In this document: positions 1 through 6,388 of the stretch, piece by piece
Numbering within the stretch: the first letter of the stretch is position 1
How the letters are laid out: the number at the start of each line of letters is the position of its first letter
NCBI GenBank assembly: GCA_019057375.1
Contig: DXJF01000144.1
Location: 1 to 11,253 of the forward strand
DNA: 11,253 nt
Source: Candidatus Heimdallarchaeota archaeon
GTDB taxonomy: Archaea > Asgardarchaeota > Heimdallarchaeia > Heimdallarchaeales > Heimdallarchaeaceae
Reading direction: 5' to 3'
Made by a program: the position numbers and the translations under genes
The notes under the pieces: model-generated
Databases searched by the model: none
What the model saw: the letters and a program-made list of their open reading frames with translations, nothing else
Told to the model about the DNA's origin: nothing

Positions 1-803
1 GAAGTAAGAATAATTCCTCGAGGAATGGGATATACGGTAGAGATTATTTATCATAAACATCTTCCAAAACAAGTGCTGAAAAACCAGAAAAGAAAAGGTG
101 CACTAGATTTAGGATTAACCAACCTCGTGACCTTTGTGGATAATATCGGCTCAAGACCGATTATTGTCAAGGACGAGGGAAAAGGAGTAAAATCAATAAC
201 ACAATATTATTTGAAGAAAATTAGTCAGTTACAGGAACAATATGCACAACAGCAAAGAGTAAATTTGAAGCAAGTCAACAAACTTCGTTATGGACCAGCG
301 TATTATCGAGCAAAAGAAAGATGGAGAAGAAAAGTTAAAGATTGTTTCCATAAGCTTAGTCATTTCTTAGCTGAGTTATGGGAGAAAAGAGGATTACATA
401 CAATCTATATTGGATACAATCCCCGGTGGAAACAGCAAGTAAGATTGAGGAAAAAAACACTCAGCTGTTTGTGATGGTGCCATTTCACAAATTAATCTCT
501 CTTCTTCAGTACAAAGCCAAGGAAAGAGGTATTACGATCGAGTTGATAGATGAGAGTTATACCTCCAAATGTAGCTTCTTAGATAATGAACCAACAACCA
601 AACAAACTAACTATGCTGGGCAAAGAATCCATCGTGGAATGTATCGTTCAGCTCAAAAGATTCTCATAAATGCTGATGTGAATGCAGCTTACAATATTTT
701 ACTCAAAAGCGATCCGCAAGCACTTCCTCCGCGAAGTGTGGGCGGGGTAGGAGGGTACGTGGTTTACCCACTTAGAGTGAGTTATCCAGCCATGAATCTC
801 TAG
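1..803 (+). pseudogene. tnpB: TnpB (IS200/IS605 OrfB-type RNA-guided nuclease), 5'-truncated by the window edge and split by a frameshift at the A7 run 451-457
   Basis: Frame 1 is open from base 1 (EVRIIPRGMGYTVEIIY), so the Met at 25 is internal. RuvC-I is ALDLG; after the shift come RuvC-II IDESYTSKCSFLD and RuvC-III INADVNAAYNI. Adding one A at 451-457 joins the two ORFs as RLRKKNTQLFVMVPF, matching the typical TnpB LGKKNNQxFVxIPF segment. Confidence 0.9.
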
Positions 804-840
804 GAAAGACAATGTTAATATGCAAATATGACAGAATCAA
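1..840 (+). mobile_element. Right part of an IS200/IS605-like (TnpB-encoding) element; candidate right end at 840
   Basis: tnpB is followed by an imperfect hairpin at 813-833 (TGTT-A-ATAT/GCAA loop/ATAT-GACA) and TCAA at 837-840, the arrangement known for IS608-type right ends. The end position is inferred, and IS607 association cannot be excluded without the left part. Confidence 0.55.
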
Positions 841-860
841 ATCATAGCTTTTCAATCACT
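720..860 (+). ncRNA. Candidate TnpB omega/reRNA (scaffold overlapping the tnpB 3' end, guide from about 841)
   Basis: GC-rich structured stretch in an AT-rich window: CCGC 729-732 pairs with GCGG 742-745, GGGTA 753-757 pairs with TACCC 765-769, plus the terminal hairpin 813-833. TnpB guide RNAs are known to derive from this position. Boundaries are approximate. Confidence 0.45.
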
Positions 861-1945
861 TTTTCAATATAGATCTTTATACCGATTCTATATTTTGGAT
901 TGTTTACATATCTGGTAGAAATAGATTGATTACATCTAGCACAGAGTCTTGATGTCTTAAACCAATTCATAAATTCGTCTTCATGTGCAGGATAACGACA
1001 GTGAGGGCATAAAATGATTCTTCTGCGGTCTTTCTTATCAAAATCCATATAGCATATTATACATTGCATCTCTTCTTTCTTGGGTGTACCAATTGGAAAG
1101 ATTTTTTTAGAGACTGTTGTAGTTTTGGATGTTTTCTTAGATGTAGTAGAACGAGTTGCTCTTACTTCTATTCCAGGATCAATTCTTGCACTTGAAGACC
1201 TAGAAGATCTACTAGCAGATGATGCAGAAGCTGTCGACCTTCTTGATCTAGTGGAAACAGATCTTTGGCTACTTCGAGTTGCTGAAGCTGTTGTTCTGCT
1301 TCTTCTGGTTGATGATGTAGTTCTAGATGAAGTAACCTGAGCTTGTTGGTTAAATCTCACTGCAAATGCAATAATGAAGTATCTAAAGATAAAAATGAAG
1401 TAAAAAATAACAAAAATGAAACTTACAAAATCGATTTGCCAATTGATAAAGAATCCAATTAATAAAATTGCAACATATGTTGTATGTATCAAAAAGGGTA
1501 TTTTTCTTCCTCTTCTTACTTTTCTGTTTACAGCAATAGCAGGCCATTTACCAGAGTAAAAGTTTCGAAAATAAAGAGAAAGAACAATCACAGGAAAAAT
1601 CAAAGATATAGATATGAGATTAAAAGAAGAATAAATTGAACTCCCACCAGATAAACCGATATCTATCCTGAAAATCTCATAAGTAGCAGCTATGGGAGAG
1701 ATATAATTTCCCATTAACATAATGCAAAATGGAAGTATTAGGAATTGAGTACTCGCTAGAATAGTTTTATGTTTTTTATAATGTCTTCTTTCAAGAAAGA
1801 ATCTCAGAGCAACAACAACATACAGAGTAATAAAGAATATTGTGAGGGTTTTTGGCAAATCATTTTGAATTGCCATATATAGTACTCCGACGGTTAATCC
1901 AACAATTCCAATTGCTAAATAGGTTTTGATGTTGTTTAGTTCCAA
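842..1945 (-). CDS. Polytopic membrane protein (~6 TM) with Ser/Thr/Arg-rich linker and C-terminal RING-type domain; putative membrane-anchored E3 ubiquitin ligase, 367 aa
   Basis: Six hydrophobic segments (approx. aa 9-26, 34-51, 62-82, 104-126, 149-169, 173-196). RING-like motif C295-x2-C298...C313-x2-C316-x4-H321-x2-E324-x3-W328...C335-x2-C338. Located next to JAMM and E2 genes. TTG start. Confidence 0.8.
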   Translation of the reverse strand: MELNNIKTYLAIGIVGLTVGVLYMAIQNDLPKTLTIFFITLYVVVALRFFLERRHYKKHKTILASTQFLILPFCIMLMGNYISPIAATYEIFRIDIGLSGGSSIYSSFNLISISLIFPVIVLSLYFRNFYSGKWPAIAVNRKVRRGRKIPFLIHTTYVAILLIGFFINWQIDFVSFIFVIFYFIFIFRYFIIAFAVRFNQQAQVTSSRTTSSTRRSRTTASATRSSQRSVSTRSRRSTASASSASRSSRSSSARIDPGIEVRATRSTTSKKTSKTTTVSKKIFPIGTPKKEEMQCIICYMDFDKKDRRRIILCPHCRYPAHEDEFMNWFKTSRLCARCNQSISTRYVNNPKYRIGIKIYIEKVIEKL

Positions 1946-1966
1946 TTAAAGCCCAACTTTCATTTT

Positions 1967-2686
1967 TTACGAATCATTTTCATATTTGTTTTTCATGAAT
2001 AGATTTATTGATTCATAACTTGCTTCACTACTCAAACCATGTACTTCACTTGAGAGTTCATAGTATGATTCTTTATCTTTGTGTATTCTGAAAACTCCAA
2101 CTCCAAAACTCTCAGGAGATATCATTAAAGGATCTAAAACAATAGCAACAGATTTATTCCAAAAGGTTTGATAACGGAGATGTGTTCTAAAGTCATCATC
2201 ACTTAGAAAGGGAGTATAGCTGGGATGTGAATGTGCCCATCCGATTATAAAATGTTCATTGTCCTTCTTGTGAAATATCTCTGTGAAAATCTTTTGATCA
2301 ACAATTTCTACACTGACTGCATCACCTTGATCTACTGGCCAATAATCTTCAACAAAAATCTGTTCTAAAGGAGTGTTTTCCTGTTTAATTCTCCCTGTTA
2401 ATAAACCAATAATTTCTACCCAATCTTTCTTAGGTATGTTTTCGTTTGCATAAGTTAAAGCATGTTTAGCTAATTTTAGATAAGCTTTGGGGGAGATAAC
2501 TATTTCATTTCTCACTTTGATTTGTAAATCATCTTCAGTGATTGTATCCTCACTTATTTCTTGTTTCACATCTATTTTTTCCTTAATAATGTCATCAACT
2601 TCATGAAGTCCTAGGGCTTTCTCAAGCGCTTCTATTTTTTTTAGAAGTTTTCTGTATTGTTCGGGAAATTCAGTTTCATTTTCCAT
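1967..2686 (-). CDS. JAB1/MPN+ (JAMM) metalloprotease, Rpn11-like deubiquitinase
   Basis: Catalytic E in EIIGLLTG and intact HxH-x7-S-x2-D motif (GWAHSHPSYTPFLSDDD). GDAVSVEIVD and AIVLDP resemble Rpn11 GVSVEAVD and AVVVDP. Start placed at ATG 2686 because AGGTGA lies 7 nt upstream; the track's TTG at 2716 is the alternative. Confidence 0.92.
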   Translation of the reverse strand: MENETEFPEQYRKLLKKIEALEKALGLHEVDDIIKEKIDVKQEISEDTITEDDLQIKVRNEIVISPKAYLKLAKHALTYANENIPKKDWVEIIGLLTGRIKQENTPLEQIFVEDYWPVDQGDAVSVEIVDQKIFTEIFHKKDNEHFIIGWAHSHPSYTPFLSDDDFRTHLRYQTFWNKSVAIVLDPLMISPESFGVGVFRIHKDKESYYELSSEVHGLSSEASYESINLFMKNKYENDS

Positions 2687-2718
2687 TATAGGCTCACCTT
2701 CTTCAGATTTACTCAATT

Positions 2719-3249
2719 CTACCAGTAGGATTTTGCATATTTCTTACTAATAGAATTTGCTTTTTTAATGAATTTCTTTTTATTATTCAAGAATTCCAGA
2801 GCTGCTTCTTTATTGAATACATCTTTGGGATTTACATAAGCTCCTTCAATATTAAACATTGCAAGGATAGAATAAATAACAGTCGTGATATTCTTAGCAG
2901 GAGACCAGCCATCATGCTTTCCTACTAATTCATTATCAACTAAAGCTAAACAAATATTTCTTTTATTAGGATATTCTTTAGGATTTGGCCAGAAATTGGG
3001 ATGCCAAATTGGTGTATGTAGTCTTACATATGGTGGTTTATATGGATAGTTTGACCCAAAGAGAATTTCAAGTTTATACTTACCACCAGCATAAGGTGTC
3101 TTCTCAGGTCCAACAAAACCTATAGCTAGATGTCCCATAGATTTCTTCTTACTTGGAAATGCTTTTACTTGAGCTAAAACACCTTCTTTATGGAGTTTTC
3201 TCAGTGCATCAAAATCTTTGATAATTCGTTGCTTTCTAATTTTTGTCAC
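2719..3249 (-). CDS. Ubiquitin-conjugating enzyme E2 (UBC fold)
   Basis: GPEKTPYAGGKY, YPYKPP, HPN (aa 83-85), catalytic Cys100 in ICL, WSP, and the C-terminal NKEAA helix. The start codon is uncertain (GTG 3249 or ATT 3240). Confidence 0.95.
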   Translation of the reverse strand: MTKIRKQRIIKDFDALRKLHKEGVLAQVKAFPSKKKSMGHLAIGFVGPEKTPYAGGKYKLEILFGSNYPYKPPYVRLHTPIWHPNFWPNPKEYPNKRNICLALVDNELVGKHDGWSPAKNITTVIYSILAMFNIEGAYVNPKDVFNKEAALEFLNNKKKFIKKANSISKKYAKSYW

Positions 3250-3909: not shown

Positions 3910-4785
3910 TTATTGATGTTCTTTCAAACTCCACATATTATCGAAAAACTCCTTAGATGGATGAATTAAATCATTGTTAATCCTGATATCATGAAGAACA
4001 CAATCACAATAAGGATACCCTTCTACTATTGTATGTTCCATGGTTAAAATGAAGTTCTCATTATTATTATTGTAACCCTGAAAATCTCCATAACATGCAG
4101 CTAGATATTTCAGTTCAATATCTGTTAAGTTAGTTATAGCATCTTTCCACATGCACGTATCTTTCCTCTGAGGAAACTTACCATCCTCAATCACTCCTTG
4201 AACAATTACCCAGCCTATACTTGGAGAATCATCATCCTTTGGAATTCTAGCATTTCTAAACTCTTCAAGAGTTTCATATTCGCTCCTTTCTGAGGATATT
4301 GATTTGACATAAGCGTCTAAATATCCTTTGAATAAGTCTATCGCTGTATTCCTTTGAATAATCTCTGTTAAAATCTGGACATTGTAATATCTGTGATAGA
4401 GAAATGACTGAACATAATTCCTATTAGGAATCTTAATTTTATCTTGAATCCAGCTCTTATTACTACTGAAGTCAAGTAATTGGAGATAATAATCAAAACA
4501 AGCACTCAATAATTCTGGAAAGACTTTCAAGTGAAAAAAATCCTTACTTAACTCTGCAAAATCTATATTCTGCTCTTTTGAAAAAGAAGTTTTGAGAAAC
4601 TGATTGATTTGATTTGTTAATCTAGTAACAAAACTATGCAAGATTTCTGGTTTTTCTTTCTTTATGTATCCAAGCAGATAATTCAATCTTTTCAGTACAG
4701 TTCTTTTAGCAAATTCTAGTGGTTGAATTTCCTGTAATCTTTCTAAATCACTAATATCATATTGACCTGTTCTAAAAACTTCCAT
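3910..4785 (-). CDS. L-2-amino-thiazoline-4-carboxylic acid hydrolase-like (V4R-related) domain protein, 291 aa
   Basis: C-terminal three-Cys pattern KDTCMW...AACYGD...LTMEHTIVEGYPYCD, typical of this family. True substrate unknown. Confidence 0.7.
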   Translation of the reverse strand: MEVFRTGQYDISDLERLQEIQPLEFAKRTVLKRLNYLLGYIKKEKPEILHSFVTRLTNQINQFLKTSFSKEQNIDFAELSKDFFHLKVFPELLSACFDYYLQLLDFSSNKSWIQDKIKIPNRNYVQSFLYHRYYNVQILTEIIQRNTAIDLFKGYLDAYVKSISSERSEYETLEEFRNARIPKDDDSPSIGWVIVQGVIEDGKFPQRKDTCMWKDAITNLTDIELKYLAACYGDFQGYNNNNENFILTMEHTIVEGYPYCDCVLHDIRINNDLIHPSKEFFDNMWSLKEHQ

Positions 4786-5521: not shown

Positions 5522-6388
5522 CTAATCAGCTTTCCCAATGTTTCTAGTGAATTCCAAAGATGGCTGCTCTGCATCTGGGTGAACATAATTATTCCAATAT
5601 AACTCATCACAGAATTTAGCATGATGAAGTGTCTGAGTTCTTCGAAGACGAATTATTTTACCTTTATTAAATTCAGGATGGTCTGTTAAGTAGCAAGAAC
5701 TCAAGTAGGCTATATCCGGATCATTAAATTCTTTCAGAGCTTCTGGTGTTAAACAACTATCAAAGCGATAAACCACTTTATAATCATCAAATATACAATT
5801 AGCGAAATCTGCAAGACCGCATTCACACCATGCCTCTATCTGTCTCTTGTTGAAATCCAGAATATTAACTGTTTTGGGATCTAGTGGTTTTTCTGTTTTA
5901 TCTTTAGACCTCATTTCTTTTATTAAATAGGGGACTATTTGTTTATAGATTCTTGTTCCTTCCTCTTTTCCGTAGGTATCAGCTAAAGCTTTTACCAAGT
6001 AATATGAGGTTCTTTCGAGAGCCTTGATGCGATCGAAATGAAATAATTCAATTTCTCCTTTATCTGATGTATAGTTATTAGGTAACTTGATTGTCTTACA
6101 TACAAAAAGAAAGACCGATTTCTCTAAGTCAGGGAAATTTGGTATCAATTCCAACCTTTCTCTAATTATTTTCCAATTAAAAGCATTATAATTAAAATCA
6201 TAATCACCTACAGCTTCACTAAACTTCTCTTTCAATTTTGAAATATAGAAACTAAGATCTTCTGGTAGAATCAATCTGAAAAACTTTGTAACAGAATCTA
6301 CTCGTTCTAGTCTAGCTTTTATTACATCTTCAGGCTTAGATTTTCCTTTCTTAGTTAAACTAAAACACTTATGGTTCTCAATTTGCAT
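5522..6388 (-). CDS. Second ATC-hydrolase-like (V4R-related) domain protein, 288 aa
   Basis: FDSCLT...SSCYLTD...LRRTQTLHHAKFCDE, and a C-terminal QPSLEF that parallels HPSKEF in 3910..4785. Confidence 0.7.
   Translation of the reverse strand: MQIENHKCFSLTKKGKSKPEDVIKARLERVDSVTKFFRLILPEDLSFYISKLKEKFSEAVGDYDFNYNAFNWKIIRERLELIPNFPDLEKSVFLFVCKTIKLPNNYTSDKGEIELFHFDRIKALERTSYYLVKALADTYGKEEGTRIYKQIVPYLIKEMRSKDKTEKPLDPKTVNILDFNKRQIEAWCECGLADFANCIFDDYKVVYRFDSCLTPEALKEFNDPDIAYLSSCYLTDHPEFNKGKIIRLRRTQTLHHAKFCDELYWNNYVHPDAEQPSLEFTRNIGKAD

Follow-up and report, generated by a model that had tools for sequence, protein, structure and literature searches.

A polytopic membrane protein with a RING-like finger as candidate ligase of a ubiquitin-like conjugation cassette in Asgard archaea

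The membrane ligases Hrd1, gp78, Doa10/MARCH and Pex2/10/12 serve endoplasmic reticulum-associated degradation (ERAD), receptor down-regulation and organelle quality control and, to our knowledge, membrane-embedded ubiquitin ligases are regarded as eukaryotic features. Do archaea possess a ligase of this kind? The question is raised by an 11,253-bp contig of a Candidatus Heimdallarchaeota archaeon (C97; the whole contig was analysed and is hereafter called the window), which belongs to a 3.47-Mb genome in 159 contigs with an estimated completeness of 89%. Three open reading frames (ORFs) are found there head to tail on the minus strand: (i) a ubiquitin-conjugating enzyme (E2); (ii) an isopeptidase of the JAB family; and (iii) a 367-aa membrane protein that ends in a RING-like finger and is a candidate ubiquitin ligase (E3). 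The features concerned are the following (AF2, AlphaFold2; pLDDT, its predicted local confidence score):

2719..3249, minus strand: E2 ubiquitin-conjugating enzyme, 176 aa, GTG start (Pfam UQ_con)
1967..2686, minus strand: JAMM/MPN+ isopeptidase, Rpn11-like, 239 aa from ATG 2686 (Pfam JAB)
842..1945, minus strand: candidate E3 of RING type, a polytopic membrane protein of 367 aa with a TTG start (homologues and synteny)
1346..1945, minus strand: its six-helix membrane domain, residues 1-200 (hydropathy and AF2; predicted N-in/C-in; fold unclassified)
1079..1345, minus strand: its Ser/Thr/Arg-rich, Lys-poor disordered linker, residues 201-289 (pLDDT and composition)
845..1078, minus strand: its RING-H2-like finger with C-terminal strand and helix, residues 290-367 (invariant columns, model and profile)

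A proposed six-gene cassette and its place in the genome

The reading preferred here, to which a probability of roughly 0.7 is given, is that these genes form part of a dedicated conjugation cassette inherited across the Asgard archaea. It would consist of six genes: (i) a ubiquitin-like modifier (Ubl); (ii) an activating enzyme (E1); (iii) the E2; (iv) the JAB isopeptidase; (v) the six-helix membrane RING protein; and (vi) in the Heimdall class, a RING-less twin of the latter. The first-pass annotation of this DNA had described three co-oriented genes, and the same coordinates were found again, with gaps of 32 nt between the E2 and JAB genes and of 21 nt between the JAB and E3 genes (for a JAB start at ATG 2686). 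Its proposal that they make up a unit of conjugation, deconjugation and ligation fits those three genes, but the unit as a whole comprises six genes and is broken up in this genome by an insertion sequence (IS).

The synteny of the cassette is supported in silico across the Asgard archaea. Homologues of the 367-aa protein carry the names Heimdallarchaeota or Heimdallarchaeaceae; three homologue-bearing contigs all have the order E2-JAB-membrane RING protein, and the most distant of them presents Ubl-E1-E2-JAB-membrane RING protein as one block. With 14 further loci from other Asgard families, searched by tblastn with the window's proteins, 17 loci were compared overall. The gene for the membrane RING protein lies 3' of the JAB gene in every one of them, and the five genes of the block are contiguous and co-oriented wherever the contig reaches (13 loci, which represent eight or more Asgard families), which bears out the synteny in relatives that the first-pass annotation had counted on. 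The order in the window's own family is E2-JAB-membrane RING protein-twin, followed by Ubl and E1 1-2 kb further on.

A profile of the membrane domain matches 180 of 400 Asgard genomes, which represent 32 of 85 genera and 11 of 33 families. In one family, 115 of the 135 genomes have the cassette and, in the window's family, 22 of the 30. All named members of the protein family come from Asgard archaea (Heimdall, Thor, Hel and Promethearchaeota). From the conserved block and the presence in 180 of 400 genomes it therefore follows that the membrane RING protein is no local oddity but a constant, E3-like part of a Ubl operon widespread in Asgard archaea. Beside the operon, many loci (L013 2729-3315, L047 3081-3769, L041, L042, L045, L049 and L052) have further Ubl paralogues, one or two each, with 31-77% identity to the Ubls used as queries; the arrangement suggests that several modifiers may use one set of E1, E2 and E3.

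In the genome studied here, the remaining genes of the cassette are located on a second contig, C151:

C151 11129..10545, minus strand: RING-less twin, six-helix, 194 aa (paralogy by hhalign)
C151 9617..9258, minus strand: Ubl, 119 aa (Pfam ubiquitin, 2.2e-6)
C151 9144..7894, minus strand: E1, ThiF-type, 416 aa

Thus, the host does have the cognate Ubl and E1 that the earlier interpretation presupposed. The Ubl combines an acidic N-terminal tail of ~45 residues with a beta-grasp domain and the C-terminus ..VSTAG. The twin is a paralogue of the E3 membrane domain (hhalign probability 95.5%, E 1.4e-8, 168 columns) and, within the loci sampled, it is confined to those of the window's class (Heimdall).

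What separates both contigs is a mobile element, the right-hand part of which opens the window:

1..841, plus strand: TnpB-only IS200/IS605-type element, right-hand ~840 nt (Pfam OrfB_IS605 and Cas12f1-like_TNB)

The rest of the element is found at C151 11207-11541, and the full element measures ~1.4 kb. It is inserted exactly after the TGA of the E3 gene and has imperfect inverted ends, TGATTCTGTCATAT and ATATGACAAAATCA. The end of C151 (TnpB N-terminus) and the start of the window are collinear with an intact copy on contig C146, with a gap of ~207 nt. Furthermore, the empty site can be recognised in relatives: window positions 1100..841 and C151 positions 11206..10900 align to one unbroken stretch in four of them, at ~95% nucleotide identity. 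Since the empty site is contiguous in these four relatives, C151 and the window must be adjacent, with the element splitting the E3 from its twin; both genes are intact despite the insertion. The TnpB frame in the window is split into overlapping ORFs (1-474 and 378-803), the C146 copy being a single 419-aa ORF; either a frameshift has made the gene a pseudogene or the assembly is wrong at this point. The genome has about 10 further diverged copies of the TnpB element (66-81% identity).

Other genes accompany the cassette. Between the twin and the Ubl, the following gene is encoded on the opposite strand:

C151 9865-10500, plus strand: Lys-rich protein, 211 aa

This protein is extremely rich in lysine, is probably disordered, contains IPKQK and KIPK repeats and has no Pfam match; the relatives L011 and L012 have genes of 243 and 253 aa in its place. 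From its composition, it could be an acceptor of the Ubl. Upstream of the E2 gene, on the same strand, the window encodes two proteins of ~290 aa (3910-4785 and 5522-6388, minus strand), both with weak ATC_hydrolase-like matches (E 1e-4, under the cut-off). Such genes are recurrent neighbours: L012 has an ATC_hydrolase gene 3' of E1, and L011 has two ~290-aa genes there.

The membrane RING protein and its partner enzymes

The TTG start of the 367-aa protein coincides with the starts of its homologues, which begin with MELNN or MDLNN. Six transmembrane (TM) helices are given by hydropathy as well as by an AF2 model that draws on 24 homologues; they span residues ~6-27, 30-52, 62-82, 105-127, 148-168 and 173-198. 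The block-mean pLDDT is mostly 72-92 in the membrane part, where the model has two beta-hairpins: one lies in the loop between TM3 and TM4, and the other, which is short, in the basic loop between TM4 and TM5. Basic segments follow TM2 (ERRHYKKHK), TM4 (NRKVRRGRK) and TM6 (an Arg-rich tail); by the positive-inside rule, they fit a topology in which both termini and the RING would be cytoplasmic (N-in/C-in). Two proposals of the first-pass annotation are thereby upheld, namely the layout of about six TM helices, linker and C-terminal RING, and the cytoplasmic placement of the RING from the basic loops, the latter by the same rule.

This architecture is identical in all 61 homologues compared, every one of which is named 'hypothetical'. 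A profile of the membrane domain alone retrieved 78 clusters among 1.84 billion representatives, nearly all of them with TM helices and a C-terminal finger, and the family shares this common layout over lengths of 340-465 aa. Conserved residues of the membrane domain include F68, P72, G79, S83, S112 and P118. The linker (~200-289) is 44% Ser/Thr (42 of 96 residues), with pLDDT values below 50 at residues 208-280, and contributes to a 121-residue run devoid of lysine (residues 149-269). Among 111 family members, the ratio K/(K+R) is 0.31 in the linker versus 0.54 elsewhere, a depletion that fits selection against lysines in the tether.

Regarding the C-terminal finger, its pattern is C295-x2-C298-x14-C313-x2-C316-x4-H321-x2-E324-x3-W328-x6-C335-x2-C338. 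Nine of its positions are invariant in 70 diverse family members, that is, seven Cys/His plus E324 and W328. The proposed zinc ligands are C295, C298, C313, C316, H321, possibly E324, C335 and C338. The His of 'CPHC' (H315), which had also been considered as a ligand, had to be dropped since this residue is not conserved in the family. When the family profile was compared with the PDB, the RING-H2 domain of RNF24 was matched at E 2.2e-6 and Arkadia, RNF165, RNF4, EL5 and RNF38 at 1e-3 to 6e-2; the alignment pairs H321 with H5, E324 with C6 and W328 with the Trp that RING-H2 fingers conserve. At E <= 0.01, 31 of the 70 members match Prok-RING_1 and 25 match zf-RING_2.

The RING fold of the finger is also supported in silico by structure prediction. 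Modelled alone by AF2, the finger reaches a pLDDT of 93, and its top 50 Foldseek matches in the PDB all belong to RINGs, U-boxes or RING-like zinc fingers (with probabilities of 0.77-1.00, mostly >0.9; TM scores 0.45-0.73). It superposes on RNF24 with a root-mean-square deviation (rmsd) of 1.8 A over 51 columns and on RNF165 with 1.9 A over 51. The first reading of the C-terminal domain as a RING fold is thus supported. Past the last Cys pair, the finger runs into a conserved strand and helix (NPKYR..Y359..EKVIEKL; residues 333-367, window 845-950), and among the structures that it matches best are RINGs whose flanking helices mediate dimerisation (RNF8, Ring1B/Bmi1, Rad18 and TRAF6); by analogy, the finger may dimerise. 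Its profile also matches the C-terminal zinc fingers of the IFT-A protein WDR19/IFT144 (E 6e-4) and the Pfam families Zf_2nd_IFT121 and zf-Vps39_C, which are RING-like fingers of protocoatomer-type membrane-trafficking proteins. These matches may just reflect common RING-H2 ancestry.

The E2 has a match to Pfam UQ_con (PF00179) over the cut-off (1.8e-26, 92.8 bits). Its HPN motif comprises residues 83-85 (nt 2995-3003) and its sole cysteine, Cys100 (nt 2950-2952), is the catalytic one; H83-P-N85 and C100 are unchanged across 36 homologues. Compared with the nearest solved E2s, the active-site Cys is flanked by two insertions of ~7 residues. The protein is 52-98% identical to entries from Heimdall, Hod, Kari, Loki/Promethearchaeota, Thor and Sigyn archaea. 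The closest solved E2 is UBE2K/E2-25K (E 9e-36), followed by Ubc13, UBE2T and Ubc1. The idea of a Ubc7-like E2 was set aside, as UBE2G2/Ubc7 is not among these closest solved structures.

The isopeptidase is a eukaryote-type JAB/MPN+ protease (Pfam JAB, PF01398, 4.2e-13). Its JAMM motif, E..HxHx7Sx2D, is intact (nt 2192-2233): Glu101 and H162-S-H164-x7-S172-x2-D175, numbered from an in-frame TTG at 2716, an alternative start that would add 10 aa (ORF 2716..1967). The ATG at 2686 is taken as the start because it is preceded by GGTGA and the resulting 239 aa match the 235-240 aa of the relatives. In the close relative L011, the Ubl (10727-11080) ends in ..STAGK instead of ..STAG; the extra residue would have to be removed before activation, which fits a processing role of the JAB enzyme.

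The interface between the RING and the adjacent E2 was predicted in a complex with two zinc ions, along with three controls. The RING-E2 pair scores 0.76 and the best of the three controls 0.02; of 80 solved complexes, 58 attain this mark, as do 2 of 110 mismatched pairs. Between runs, at least 97% of the contacts are in common, with a partner pLDDT of at least 85. The predicted interface has the textbook arrangement: on the side of the E2, it comprises residues 4-11 of helix 1, P69-Y70 (PYKP loop), 109-112 and 116-120 (W115-S-P-A-K loop); on the side of the RING, I296-M300, E324, N327, W328 and L334-R337. Since E2-RING complexes have already been solved, the score may partly mirror likeness to known structures. 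Accordingly worded, the prediction means that the pair looks canonical, a statement on likeness and not on binding, and to this extent the pairing of RING and E2 put forward earlier is sustained by the model.

As for the membrane domain, it has no Pfam or NCBIfam match; a profile of the TM region found no PDB sequence at E <= 10, and Foldseek with the full model found no match of the membrane domain in the PDB at E <= 0.001. In a VIA-align comparison with 48,161 chains, human HRD1 came first (9uav_B; Z 7.9, rmsd 3.2 A for 114 aligned residues), but unrelated helical proteins scored about as high (Z 7.4-7.6) and yeast Hrd1 was outside the top 50. Chance scores of Z 13-14 are common for helical bundles with this method. 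A renewed scoring of Foldseek's own list gave nothing over Z 7.1, a shape search of the ESM Atlas returned the protein's own family alone, and a language-model search for look-alikes yielded no usable match. A Hrd1-type fold was not adopted, the HRD1 match being within noise and lacking support from the TM profile or Foldseek. Neither homology to Hrd1 nor a new fold is claimed for the membrane domain, and 'Hrd1-like' would refer here to the layout, by analogy. Of the Hrd1/gp78 layout assigned at first, the polytopic domain, the linker and the predicted C-in RING stand; for a kinship of the membrane domain, no match exceeds noise.

The proposed pathway and its rivals

According to the preferred reading, the pathway would proceed as follows: (i) the E1 would adenylate the C-terminal Gly of the Ubl and hand the thioester to Cys100 of the E2; (ii) the flexible, Lys-poor tether of ~90 residues would keep the RING at the cytoplasmic face of the membrane; (iii) the RING would engage the E2~Ubl through I296, W328 and the C335-A-R-C338 loop, set against helix 1 and the PYKP and W-S-P-A loops of the E2; (iv) transfer of the Ubl would be stimulated onto lysines of proteins recognised by the membrane domain, possibly as a heteromer with the RING-less twin; and (v) the JAB enzyme would strip the tag and also mature the Ubl where an extra C-terminal residue is present. 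The targets would be membrane or membrane-proximal proteins. Within this scheme, E3 activity, zinc binding by a Cys2-His-Glu set, the substrates, their fate (Cdc48/proteasome, sorting or regulation) and the heteromer with the twin are presumed. A stronger version, held only tentatively, is that the six-helix RING protein and its twin form a heteromeric ligase, an ancestral, built-in Asgard E3 which tags integral membrane proteins for Cdc48/proteasome or for sorting. If that were so, the logic of ERAD would have operated at the archaeal plasma membrane before there was an endoplasmic reticulum, regardless of any kinship with the Hrd1 fold.

Several observations weigh against the cassette as proposed. 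In the finger, the sixth ligand position is an invariant Glu (E324) instead of Cys or His, and neither the C3-C4 spacing (C-x2-C knuckle) nor that of C4-H5 is canonical; of the zinc sites, the one formed by C295, C298, H321 and Glu324 may be altered or lost. The match to zf-RING_2 scores 19.7 bits when the whole protein is used and 23.4 when the domain is used, both under the gathering cut-off of 27.3, and because of this shortfall the homologues are called 'hypothetical' and have no precomputed Pfam domain. The Ubl ends in Ala-Gly and not in Gly-Gly. Besides, the genome encodes further E2s and soluble RING-like proteins, so that the E2-E3 pairings are not exclusive, and in this genome the operon is cut by the IS.

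These points leave room for other explanations, two of which concern the membrane protein itself. It might be a true homologue of Hrd1/gp78, with the cassette extracting misfolded membrane proteins in an ERAD-like manner for degradation by the proteasome. Both have several TM helices, a linker and a cytosolic RING-H2-like finger; human HRD1 heads the VIA-align ranking, the HRD1 RING is among the weak matches, and the host encodes two Cdc48 ATPases and a 20S proteasome. Nevertheless, Cdc48 and the proteasome are non-specific in this regard because they are present in nearly all archaea, and the membrane-domain searches described above, with an HRD1 score of Z 7.9 level with unrelated helices (7.4-7.6) and yeast Hrd1 beyond the top 50, no Foldseek match, no PDB sequence at E <= 10 and no Pfam family, make true homology very unlikely. 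Alternatively, the protein might be a membrane anchor or a self-regulated transporter, channel or scaffold whose RING modifies itself, the twin or the Ubl. A highly conserved membrane domain in which no substrate-binding module is recognisable and a twin kept adjacent would suit that role, and the Lys-poor linker could reflect selection on sites of Ubl attachment. Yet a Lys-free tether argues for self-modification being avoided and, since the membrane RING protein is the sole E3-like gene in the five-gene block shared across families, a block in which it had no substrates would be a pathway without a ligase; this option is improbable.

The other two explanations concern the cassette as a whole. 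A role in antiviral defence, Bil-like or similar to CBASS Cap2/Cap3, with a membrane effector, is brought to mind by the Ubl/E1/E2/JAB composition, which resembles that of bacterial Bil operons, and by PADLOC 'E1-E2' models that match the adenylation domain of the E1 (up to 1.8e-18) and, weakly, the JAB protein (6e-4). But these matches are partial and at the level of the superfamily, and the E2, the Ubl, the membrane RING protein and the twin have none (version 2.0, 2023, which may lack newer systems). Moreover, near-universal presence within families (115 of 135 and 22 of 30 genomes) and an E2 that is 52-98% identical across classes point to vertical housekeeping inheritance and not to a patchy defence island. 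With superfamily-level matches alone in PADLOC, the defence reading was rejected as highly improbable. Least credible is a sulfur carrier of the MoaD/ThiS/SAMP/Urm1 type acting in thiolation, with the finger belonging to an unrelated zinc-ribbon membrane protein. The E1 is indeed of the ThiF family, the Ubl ends in a single Gly after Ala, and the finger has weak zinc-ribbon matches; against this, the block invariably includes a JAMM isopeptidase and a canonical UBC E2 with its catalytic Cys, and the finger is modelled as a cross-brace RING predicted to dock on the E2.

Comparison with known systems

What appears to be new here, with an E3 assignment well supported in silico, is an archaeal Ub-E1-E2-RING-JAMM operon with a polytopic ligase whose membrane domain is unclassified and Asgard-specific. 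No paper on a membrane-embedded archaeal RING ligase was found in the full-text literature, in line with the first-pass annotation, which knew of no characterised archaeal membrane E3; most subscription journals lie outside the scope of that search, and a prior description is possible. An Asgard membrane ligase would have been missed in annotation because its RING is under the Pfam thresholds. Should the preferred reading be true, it suggests that tagging at membranes pre-dates eukaryotes and that a membrane may have been the site of the first ubiquitin pathway of eukaryote-like type. The origin of membrane-protein ubiquitylation would then become testable with six small genes, and the few Asgard archaea in culture would offer a defined target.

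[quoted passage not shown] In the genome studied here, the following cluster is found:

C132 5730-12499: ubiquitin-ESCRT cluster with a small GTPase, ubiquitin, E1, a UEV fusion, further ESCRT-like genes, Vps4 and ESCRT-III

It contains a 78-aa ubiquitin ending in ..KGGL, a 334-aa E1 and a 482-aa UEV-Vps23-Vps28 fusion, and within the cluster there is no catalytic E2, JAB or RING. Its ubiquitin is 23% identical to the Ubl of the cassette and may depend on an E2 encoded elsewhere, possibly that of the window. A link of the cassette to ESCRT was considered and discarded: the cluster stands on a separate contig with a ubiquitin and an E1 of its own, and there is no sign that the cassette feeds it. 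This, together with the noise-level HRD1 match, leaves the 'ERAD-like or ESCRT-sorting' label of the first-pass annotation a hypothesis. Soluble RING E3s have been reported in some Asgard ubiquitin-ESCRT clusters (10.1101/2023.07.25.550441), and Asgard E3s have been surveyed through an unrelated InterPro family (Hatano et al., 2022; PMC9192718).

Small RING-H2 ligases, i.e., RNF24, Arkadia/RNF111, RNF165, RNF38 and EL5/ATL, are what the finger matches best, both by sequence profile and by structure. Their pattern is C-x2-C...C-x-H-x2-H-x2-C...C-x2-C, whereas that of the finger is C-x2-C...C-x2-C-x4-H-x2-E...C-x2-C; in contrast to them, the finger continues at its C-terminus into an additional strand and helix and is joined to an Asgard-specific membrane domain.

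With Hrd1/SYVN1 and gp78/AMFR, the protein shares a multi-pass domain, a flexible region and a cytosolic RING that recruits a UBC E2, in the present case according to the predicted complex, and the Ile and Trp contacts are common to them. The differences are as follows: (i) Hrd1 has eight helices, versus six here; (ii) the membrane domains have no detectable sequence similarity, and their structural similarity is at noise; (iii) no Hrd3/SEL1L or Der1 partner turned up, no search having been aimed at Hrd3/SEL1L, Der1 or Usa1; and (iv) the closest solved E2 is UBE2K and not Ubc7/UBE2G2.

Among the closest known systems is also an archaeal one. The operon of Ca. Caldiarchaeum subterraneum, which encodes ubiquitin, an E1-like, an E2-like, a small RING finger and an Rpn11 protein, has been reconstituted, and systems of this type have also been described in Asgard archaea, a membrane form of the E3 not being mentioned in that paper (Hennell James et al., 2017; PMC5654768). 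Both operons co-encode a ubiquitin-like modifier, a ThiF-type E1, a UBC E2, a RING E3 and a JAMM/Rpn11-like protein, and follow the same E2-RING logic. In Asgard archaea, the five genes of the Caldiarchaeum type are found together in at least eight families and, in this genome, on two adjacent contigs. The Asgard Ubl differs in its acidic extension of ~45 residues and its Ala-Gly end, and the RING in the Glu at its sixth ligand position and its sub-Pfam score. Above all, the E3 of Caldiarchaeum is a small soluble RING, whereas the one considered here is a 367-aa, six-helix protein with a tether of ~90 residues and, in the Heimdall class, a twin. In general terms, the archaeal systems described so far use small soluble RINGs, while the candidate ligase of the Asgard operon is polytopic and occurs in about half of the sampled genomes.

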